DNA of 64,000 nucleotides from Escherichia coli (GCF_036507355.1 NZ_AP027877.1); one strand, 5' to 3'. Shown: positions 15,618 through 19,034, numbered from the stretch's first letter. The notes: a model not told the origin generated them from the letters alone. A program made the numbers and translations.

Positions 15618-15834
15618 CGTATTTCCTTTCTTAGGGTATAAAGTAGCGGGCAGCATATCAGCCACACTTCTTTGGGTAAAACTTTGTCGCGGGAATGATG
15701 ACAAATCACGGGGAAAAAGAAACAATAGCAATATCCCGTATGAATATAATAAAGGCGGGTTTACCACGGACATCATAGCGTTAGCTTATTCATAGGCTAT
15801 GATTGAGGAACAAGACGCGGAGCAGGAGGAAACC

Positions 15835-16473
15835 ATGCCCGGGCGCTTTGAACTAAAACCAACCCTGGAGAAAGTCTGGCACGCGCCGGACAATTTTCGC
15901 TTCATGGACCCGCTGCCGCCGATGCATCGTCGGGGGATCATTATTGCCGCCATTGTATTGGTGGTCGGATTTCTGCTTCCATCTGATGATACGCCCAACG
16001 CGCCGGTGGTGACGCGTGAAGCGCAGTTAGATATTCAGTCGCAATCACAACCGCCGACAGAAGAACAGCTGCGGGCGCAATTAGTCACACCACAAAATGA
16101 TCCTGATCAGGTGGCTCCGGTCGCTCCAGAACCTATACAGGAAGGCCAGCCAGAAGAACAGCCGCAAACTACCCAAACGCAACCATTCCAGCCAGATAGC
16201 GGAATTGATAATCAATGGCGCTCTTACCGTGTCGAACCCGGTAAAACGATGGCGCAGCTGTTCCGCGACCACGGACTGCCCGCTACCGATGTCTATGCAA
16301 TGGCGCAGGTAGAAGGCGCGGGTAAGCCGCTGAGTAATTTGCAAAACGGGCAGATGGTGAAAATCCGCCAGAACGCCAGCGGCGTGGTGACGGGCTTAAC
16401 CATTGATACGGGGAATAATCAACAGGTCCTGTTTACCCGCCAGCCGGATGGCAGTTTTATTCGCGCGCGGTAG
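15835..16473 (+). CDS. ytfB: OapA/LysM-domain cell-division-associated protein
   Basis: ORF track 15799..16473; ATG at 15835 gives [21 protein letters not shown]..., 212 aa; SD aggagga. Confidence 0.85.
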
Positions 16474-16783
16474 ATGAAGGGTCAACCAGAAGCCAGCTAA
16501 GGATTGTCTCTTTGATGACCTTACGTCTGGCTTCCAGTGCCTGGGGTGAAACCATACTGATGTGATAAACCAGGCCAAGCGTATGCTGGTTGATCAAATA
16601 ATATCCCCCAAGCGCAGCAATATTAATATTCACCTGCAATGGGTCGATATCTGGCTTAAAAATATTGTGTTTCTTCCCTTCATCCAATAAGGATTCCATT
16701 AACTGCAAGTGCGCATGGTTAATTTCTAAGAGACGCTGTGATTTTGCATAATGCACACCTTTACTTTGATTTTCACTATGCAC
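16457..16783 (-). CDS. ytfA: TetR-family regulator C-terminal-like fragment (likely pseudogene)
   Basis: ORF track 108 aa; overlaps ytfB 3' end by 17 nt; no N-terminal HTH region. Confidence 0.6.
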
Positions 16784-17131
16784 AATTTTTAAAAACCAGG
16801 GATTAGCAATATAATAATCCCATGTAAAATAAATAATTTTCTCAATGGCTTTTTGTGGCTGGTTAACCTGCTGATTAACGAATACACCGATACCGACAGC
16901 GTAGAATAATTACATACCGCACAACAAGAATGTACGGTGTAAGGCGTGGAAGTCATTTTCTCCCCGGGTGCATCGTTATATCCGTGATGAGCGATTTTTG
17001 ATATTAATATCTTTCACCATCCGCTATTTTCACTACTTCAGAAAACAAACTTATTTTTATTAATATCGATTCTTTATTCTGTAAACATTCAGCTGAGATA
17101 TTTATAAAAACATTAAACAGGCAACGATACA

Positions 17132-17926
17132 ATGACATTACCAACCACTATTTATTCATTTCCTGCATATTCACCCCGTTTTTCGTCCACCGACAAACCA
17201 GTAAAATTAAAAATTCATCAATACGCACGCGCTACATTACTTTCAAATCGTGGAAGAGATCATAATTGCGATGGCAGACGTACTGTTGAGATCCACAAAC
17301 TAGATCTCTCAGACTGGCAAGCATTCAATAAGCTAGCGACGAGGTGTAATGCTTACGATGGAATAACAATGAAGGGTGATAATTCTTTTGGATGGAACCA
17401 TGAAGCTACATTAGATAATATTCACGCCCAGAAATACAATAAAGCTTACGCGGGTGCGCGGTTAACCGCAGAACTGAAATATTTATTGCAAGATGTCGAA
17501 TCCTTCGAACCCAACAGTAGATACACAATACACGAGGTTGTTTTGGGACCTGGTTATGGTACTCCAGACTATACCGGCCAAACGATAGGATACGTTGTAA
17601 CCCTTCCTGCCCAAATGCCTAATTGCTGGTCATCTGAACTACCAACAATCGATCTTTATATCGACCAACTTCGCACTGTTACAGGCGTTTCTAATGCCCT
17701 CGGATTCATCATTGCTGCATTGCTAAACGCGTATTCTGATTTACCCCATGATTTGAAAATTGGTCTGCGTTCCTTATCAAGTTCAGCCGCAATCTACTCG
17801 GGTTTGGGTTTTGAGCGAGTGCCGCAGGAGCGAGACATCAGTTGCGCTCATATGTATCTAACGCCAGCAAACCATCCTGACTTATGGACACAAGAGAATG
17901 GTGAATGGATCTACTTGCGAAATTAA
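17132..17926 (+). CDS. yjfZ: Uncharacterised protein YjfZ
   Basis: ORF track 264 aa; preceded by about 350 bp of AT-rich DNA; weak RBS. Confidence 0.8.
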   Translation: MTLPTTIYSFPAYSPRFSSTDKPVKLKIHQYARATLLSNRGRDHNCDGRRTVEIHKLDLSDWQAFNKLATRCNAYDGITMKGDNSFGWNHEATLDNIHAQKYNKAYAGARLTAELKYLLQDVESFEPNSRYTIHEVVLGPGYGTPDYTGQTIGYVVTLPAQMPNCWSSELPTIDLYIDQLRTVTGVSNALGFIIAALLNAYSDLPHDLKIGLRSLSSSAAIYSGLGFERVPQERDISCAHMYLTPANHPDLWTQENGEWIYLRN

Positions 17927-17946
17927 TGCCTGACGAAAAATAGAAA

Positions 17947-17976
17947 GCAAAACGCCGACCAGTGGTCGGCGTTTTT
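17947..17976. terminator. Hairpin terminator between convergent yjfZ and rplI
   Basis: aaaacgccgacc-agt-ggtcggcgttttt: perfect stem flanked by A-run and T-run. Confidence 0.7.
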
Positions 17977-17996
17977 ACGTCTCGTTGAATAACGAA

Positions 17997-18458
<462 letters not shown>

Positions 18459-18487
18459 TCAAAGTCGTATTAATGGACCGTGACCGA

Positions 18488-19034
<547 letters not shown>

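Follow-up and report, generated by a model that had tools for sequence, protein, structure and literature searches.

Organization of the locus

The window analysed here is a stretch of 64,000 nucleotides from Escherichia coli (GCF_036507355.1 NZ_AP027877.1), in which the genes cycA-fklB-ytfB-ytfA-yjfZ-rplI-rpsR-priB-rpsF lie in the orientation opposite to that of K-12. The strain differs from K-12, and the top match to positions 16300-18100 among 5,426 complete E. coli genomes, the set used for the genome counts given below, is 98.6% identical. The conserved left flank is formed by ytfB (15835..16473, + strand), which encodes a LysM/OapA cell-division protein (Pfam LysM_OapA and OapA_N) and is 99% identical across the E. 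coli architectures examined, strain XDL excepted. It is followed by the ytfA pseudogene (16457..16859, − strand), a decayed 103 bp fragment of an SDR gene (16863..16965, + strand), a 5' region of 30% GC native to yjfZ (16966..17131, + strand) and the accessory gene yjfZ itself (17132..17926, + strand), which encodes 264 residues. Two putative deletion junctions lie at 16853..16866 and 16960..16968. A perfect 13+13 hairpin flanked by A/T runs (17949..17975), a bidirectional terminator common to rplI and yjfZ, marks the right boundary of a variable slot, and all architectures are homologous again from 17939-17944.

The 348 bp between the ytfA open reading frame and yjfZ (16784-17131) have a GC content of 33.6% compared with 51.6% in the whole window. 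The initial annotation had described about 350 bp of AT-rich DNA here, which is accurate as to length and composition; the tract is not anonymous, however, as about a third of it is the SDR fragment. Aligned with other alleles, it resolves into TetR remnant (76 bp), the SDR fragment (103 bp) and DNA native to the upstream side of yjfZ (166 bp).

A scan of 16400-18050 for mobile elements returned a pair of AT-rich direct repeats (a 17-nt reference and a second copy 82% identical to it), a weak 26-nt inverted repeat within yjfZ and the terminator hairpin; an integrase, a transposase, a tRNA/att site and flanking direct repeats, as signs of a mobile island or IS-bounded element, were all absent from this interval. 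A search of Rfam at a permissive threshold gave nothing above the gathering score, with weak matches confined to the terminator hairpin, and promoter and terminator scans found no more sites than in shuffled sequence, the rplI/yjfZ hairpin excepted. The gap between ytfE and cycA is a further variable spot in the same neighbourhood: in strain FDAARGOS_1058 (L002 7118-8718) it holds an additional hypothetical gene and a pseudogene that are absent from O157.

The intact operon allele

In the intact allele, a full TetR/AcrR gene of 215 codons is divergent from five enzyme genes and a transporter. The enzymes are an SDR annotated as a 3-ketoacyl-ACP reductase, a xylose-isomerase-like TIM barrel, an enoyl-CoA hydratase, a fused CoA transferase and a 693-residue FAD_binding_2 oxidoreductase; the operon ends in either a TRAP (dctQMP-like) or an MFS transporter, after which comes the rplI terminator. 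The regulator has an N-terminal HTH (TetR_N, residues 18-60) and a C-terminal ligand domain (TetR_C_29, residues 82-200), and the divergent promoter region contains a perfect palindrome, TCAACCA-N6-TGGTTGA (L005 2596-2615), which is kept from E. coli to Entomohabitans and occurs at the equivalent position in L002, L006, L007, L015, L017, L020 and L004. This palindrome is a candidate operator for the full-length regulator, and no copy of it occurs anywhere in the 64-kb window. The layout is that of TetR/AcrR repressors with a divergent catabolic or transport operon; the window keeps only the ligand domain.

The same ytfB-rplI site carries the intact form in six other species-level lineages, four Escherichia together with Klebsiella spallanzanii and Entomohabitans; E. 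whittamii, E. albertii, the divergent 'E. coli' SCPM-O-B-8794, K. spallanzanii and Entomohabitans teleogrylli are examples. Close relatives of the regulator were found in seven of about 100,000 species representatives, the next best proteins being 38-40% identical and from Alphaproteobacteria, and the TetR and transporter genes are low in GC (39-47%).

The segment comprising the TetR 5' end, the promoter and the SDR 5' end (545 bp), taken as the marker of the intact allele, is present in 3,153 of the 5,426 genomes (58%), so that full-length ytfA homologues are common rather than rare, as expected if ytfA is the remnant of a regulator. The allele found in the window, referred to below as the scar allele, occurs as one piece in 2,227 genomes (41%), and the two alleles together account for 99% of the set. 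The MFS gene is present in 1,693 genomes, the TRAP genes (at least 80% coverage) in 1,446 and yjfZ in 2,538 (47%). Subtraction of 2,227 from 2,538 implies that about 311 of the ~3,150 operon-bearing genomes carry both the operon and yjfZ.

The intact marker segment falls into three discrete identity classes (≥99%, n = 1,464; 90-95%, n = 1,186; 80-90%, n = 416 genomes), an allelic divergence that is unusually deep for E. coli. In strain XDL (L004 3407-4809) the ytfB-TetR segment is 78-80% identical to that of other E. coli and the rplI side 99.4%; the former has the appearance of a highly divergent allele acquired from elsewhere. The search with the scar allele placed about 20 genomes in identity bands of 60-90%.

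Reconstruction of the deletions

Comparison with L005, the allele that carries the operon plus yjfZ, divides the interval into three blocks that are collinear and on the same strand. Positions 15701-16859 of the window correspond to L005 1069-2227 (99.0% identity) and contain ytfB together with the last 403 nt of the TetR gene; 16863-16965 correspond to L005 2773-2875 (81.6%, E = 2e-23) and cover nucleotides 89-191 of the SDR gene, with which the lost operon began; and 16963-18500 correspond to L005 10206-11742 (97.0%), which begins 99 bp past the MFS stop codon and runs through the upstream DNA of yjfZ and the gene itself into rplI. At the first junction, TetR codon 83 is fused to nucleotide 89 of the SDR gene with the loss of 545 bp, namely TetR codons 1-82, the entire divergent intergenic region and the SDR start; GTGGCGGA is found at both breakpoints of the intact allele and the window reads GTGGCTGGTTAACC. 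At the second, the SDR fragment is joined to the DNA beyond the MFS gene and 7,330 bp, the remainder of the operon, are gone; TCCCTG microhomology is present at both L005 breakpoints (2876 and 10205). Short repeats at both junctions are typical of microhomology-mediated deletion.

The SDR fragment differs from L005 by 19 mismatches, which are spread evenly over the codon positions (7/6/6), and has acquired two in-frame stops, indicating neutral decay. Its copies in the scars of the window, K-12 and O157 agree at 99-100% identity, and in this stretch the intact alleles differ by up to 13% among themselves. The divergence of the fragment from intact alleles (18%) contrasts with that of the adjacent TetR remnant (1-2%). 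The ~98% identity of the TetR remnant most likely results from continued recombination with intact alleles through the ytfB-TetR-3' DNA, with the SDR fragment isolated from such exchange.

Taken together, we regard it as highly probable that the interval is a scar allele of a polymorphic locus, left by two deletions of a regulator-plus-operon unit next to an independently acquired accessory gene, yjfZ. The initial annotation was right to see in ytfA the decayed remnant of a regulator unit with cargo, and its error lay in taking yjfZ for that cargo: the cargo proper is the five enzyme genes and the transporter, deleted in the window. The scar is ordinary genome decay at a recombining variable locus, and the pseudogene status of ytfA was already annotated. 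The junctions, the SDR fragment, the lost cargo and the occurrence of the scar across species are described in none of the papers that full-text searches on ytfA, yjfZ and DUF2686 retrieved.

The ancestral Escherichia state comprised ytfB, the full TetR/AcrR gene, the divergent promoter with its palindrome, the five enzyme genes, the transporter and the rplI terminator. A yjfZ segment of ~1.07 kb would then have taken the place of the short spacer that separated the MFS gene from the rplI terminator, after which two microhomology-flanked deletions, of 545 bp at GTGGCGGA and of 7,330 bp at TCCCTG, would have spared only TetR codons 83-215 and a 103 bp piece of the SDR gene, the latter decaying neutrally. 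The placement of the yjfZ insertion before the deletions is suggested by parsimony from one intermediate architecture, that of the about 311 genomes with both operon and yjfZ.

YjfZ, YjiC and their predicted fold

YjfZ matches the Pfam family DUF2686 (PF10887) over residues 5-264 (E = 1e-152, 507 bits against a cut-off of 25). The weak ribosome-binding site of the initial annotation is borne out, the only Shine-Dalgarno-like element being AGG, 11 nt upstream of the ATG. Pairwise dN/dS values of 0.19-0.29, with dS reaching 0.095, show yjfZ to be a genuine gene under purifying selection. With its occurrence in under half of the genomes, a GC content of 42.8% and a GC3 of 36%, it is accessory rather than universal and core-like in composition.

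Relatives of YjfZ were found only in Escherichia, both in a word-indexed search of 5.8 billion proteins and in an exhaustive HMMER search of 1.84 billion representatives; two proteins of 1,330 and 3,635 residues returned by the exhaustive search are low-complexity repeat artefacts. The sole paralogue is YjiC (b4325), encoded between iraD and uxuR and 38% identical over its full length. The two proteins share the DUF2686 profile, the predicted fold, a low GC content (40% for yjiC) and the restriction to Escherichia. They differ in distribution: yjiC is near-core (4,897 of 5,426 genomes, 90%) and YjiC has relatives of 62-71% identity, one of them named from E. albertii, whereas yjfZ is found only in E. 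coli.

YjfZ has been listed as a signature protein specific to E. coli/Shigella and grouped with YahL and YdjO (PMC11057252). The latter two were rejected as paralogues, being 18-21% identical in forced alignment and not matching DUF2686. Both the forward and the reverse 'YjfZ' qPCR primers of that study match yjiC exactly (114 bp amplicon, L012 5410-5523, K-12 JM109) and match yjfZ neither in the window (17132-17926) nor in K-12, so the assay appears to target yjiC.

All 16 aligned YjfZ/YjiC members match the DUF2686 profile, and none matches any other Pfam family at E ≤ 10. A sequence-profile search of the PDB gave a best E value of 0.17, to a protein that is not a GNAT, and a resemblance of the N-terminus to ribosomal protein S12 (E = 0.76) was dismissed as chance (hhalign probability 5%). 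The predicted structures, of which that of YjfZ is poor (pLDDT 44.7), match GNAT acyltransferases only. The best-ranked subfamily differs between the models, tRNA-acetylating toxins for YjiC and siderophore acyltransferases together with AHL synthases for YjfZ, which justifies an assignment at the superfamily level alone. Where members of this superfamily such as TacT/AtaT, LasI/EsaI and DfoC/SidF carry the canonical Q/RxxGxG/A at motif A, YjfZ and YjiC have instead a non-canonical invariant loop, T182-V-x-G185-V-x-N188-x-x-G191-F (TVxGVxNxxGF), and they have an N-terminal extension of ~40-60 residues modelled at low confidence. On the basis of these models, YjfZ is most likely a cytoplasmic, acyl-CoA-dependent acyltransferase of the GNAT superfamily; the GNAT fold is likely, and catalytic activity is an evenly balanced proposition.

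A role for yjfZ as a TacT/AtaT-like GNAT toxin or a defence gene, rather than as a metabolic acyltransferase, is unlikely. No antitoxin open reading frame adjoins the gene: on the + strand of 16860-17131, only low-complexity frames of 23 and 31 residues were found, in scar DNA, and downstream of yjfZ lies the rplI terminator. The YjfZ model itself puts siderophore acyltransferases and AHL synthases first, so that the order of subfamilies is not robust, and Z differences of about 1 do not discriminate.

The ytfA remnant

The open reading frame annotated as ytfA (16457..16783, − strand) has an internal GTG start and encodes 108 residues, which match positions 27-119 of TetR_C_29 (E = 5e-20); TetR_N (PF00440) or any other HTH was not matched at E ≤ 1. 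Its description as a TetR-like C-terminal region devoid of an HTH and overlapping the 3' end of ytfB was therefore correct. The two genes are convergent and overlap by 17 bp (16457-16473), and the same overlap is found in strains with the intact TetR gene. The TetR homology runs 76 bp past the reading frame to 16859, giving 403 nt that correspond to codons 83-215 plus the stop, and the extended remnant covers the whole of the TetR_C_29 profile (positions 1-119). An in-frame upstream extension of ytfA was considered as a decayed HTH end and rejected, the TetR homology ending at 16859; the extension peptide comes from reading the SDR fragment on its antisense strand. Residues 83-215 of the full-length regulators of other Escherichia (e.g. 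WP_001299246.1 and WP_001318432.1) match the remnant protein at 98-100% identity, and at the same locus of K-12, RefSeq lists b4205 (ytfA) as a 402 bp pseudogene of the same extent. The presence of ytfA varies among E. coli strains (PMC6790063), and a 2025 preprint handles it as a pseudogene with small CRISPRi effects.

The HTH domain (encoded within the 545 bp deletion), the start codon, the promoter and the candidate operator are all missing from the remnant. With its HTH lost and the candidate operator absent from the window, ytfA would be a dead regulator that cannot bind DNA. In O157:H7 F7508 (L001 7297-8944, at about window position 16564), IS609, with tnpA and the InsQ/TnpB RNA-guided nuclease gene, lies inside the remnant, as it does in many other strains (the matches at 85% coverage in the scar-allele genome search).

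It is very unlikely that ytfA is nevertheless alive, as an HTH-less TetR ligand-binding and dimerization domain that selection maintains in a role such as sensor or decoy. Its reading frame remains open in both the window and K-12, and the K-12 remnant protein is identical to that of the intact allele (Nd = 0), with ω values of 0.1-0.2; this low ω, however, is mostly history in common with the intact alleles, and the splitting of the remnant by IS609 in O157:H7 counts against selection. An RpoD site detected in vitro faces ytfA, but no Shine-Dalgarno sequence precedes its GTG, and strains that lack the full-length TetR gene offer it no dimer partner. CRISPRi of ytfA altered two genes, dapE and bssS, according to the preprint, effects that could come from the overlapping ytfB. 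The RefSeq curators likewise treat ytfA as a pseudogene.

The variable slot of yjfZ

The DNA between the transporter gene and the rplI terminator varies among strains. In BL21 it is a 42 bp spacer (L007 10779-10879), nearly identical in E. whittamii. In Nissle 1917 (L006 10921-12684) it contains a frameshifted hipA and an HTH gene, a hipA-like toxin-antitoxin pair, and in K. spallanzanii and Entomohabitans (L018 1339-2259; L020 404-1916) a DMT/EamA transporter gene, beside which Entomohabitans has a MaoC-like gene. The spacer between yjfZ and ytfA is an in vitro binding site of the RpoD holoenzyme, flagged HNS (Shimada et al., 2014; PMC3946193), and yjfZ is an independent accessory gene that is probably silenced by H-NS.

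It is likewise very unlikely that yjfZ is TetR-controlled cargo orphaned by the deletion. In about 311 genomes the gene does come immediately after MFS, in the same orientation, but a hairpin and T-run follow the MFS stop codon and 270 bp of 30%-GC DNA intervene between MFS and yjfZ; about 90% of operon-bearing genomes lack yjfZ, and in other strains its slot is empty or occupied by the hipA/HTH genes. These comparisons indicate that yjfZ is not the cargo of the regulator and occupies a separate variable slot past the operon terminator.

Direction and age of the scar

Six other species-level lineages with the intact form at the same site, together with the structure of the scar, indicate that the intact form is the ancestral one in Escherichia, from which the form in the window is derived by deletion. 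The converse, in which the short K-12-type arrangement came first and the TetR operon was an island acquired by other strains, might be read from the patchy distribution of close TetR relatives and the low GC of the TetR and transporter genes, but is scarcely credible, since insertion cannot yield a 5'-truncated TetR gene and an internal 103 bp SDR piece in the 'empty' allele, and the operon has no integrase, tRNA or flanking repeats.

Both scar junctions are present in identical form in Escherichia sp. E1V33, in which yjfZ has additionally been lost: its sequence matches window 15701-17094 at 91% identity and picks up again only at 17939. Its SDR fragment carries the derived changes GAATAAT, GGTG and CTCCC of the E. 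coli scar, with 15% divergence elsewhere. The occurrence of the same scar in this strain implies that the scar is old, about as deep as the between-species divergence of Escherichia at this locus; the E. coli copies, judged by their near-identity, have a recent common ancestor. The E1V33 locus (L019) is a mosaic with respect to the window (cycA 99.6%, ytfB 90.5%, scar 85-93%), which indicates recombination breakpoints between fklB and ytfB.

A more far-reaching joint reading, which we consider improbable, would make YjfZ/YjiC a GNAT-fold lineage that arose in Escherichia or evolves very fast and acts on a new acceptor; it might be a toxin-like or defence factor that acylates tRNA or proteins on its own, lodged in a small insertion hotspot next to the rplI terminator whose occupant in other strains is a hipA-type toxin-antitoxin pair. 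In this reading the scar and intact alleles would be an old cross-species Escherichia polymorphism kept by niche-dependent selection on the lost operon.

Conclusions

The deletion reading of the locus has consequences for the annotation of E. coli. The ytfA of K-12-type strains, having lost its DNA-binding domain and candidate operator, does not belong in counts or screens of transcription factors. As yjfZ occurs in only 47% of the complete genomes, it is no universal E. coli marker. DUF2686 may for now be assigned to the GNAT fold class. The locus as a whole offers a simple marker of E. coli lineage history with four states (scar, MFS, TRAP, and with or without yjfZ or hipBA). The intact operon, carried by most B2 and BL21-type strains and absent from K-12, represents an uncharacterised organic-acid pathway with an SDR, a TIM-barrel protein, a crotonase, a CoA-transferase, a flavoprotein and a TRAP/MFS importer, and would be worth a substrate screen.
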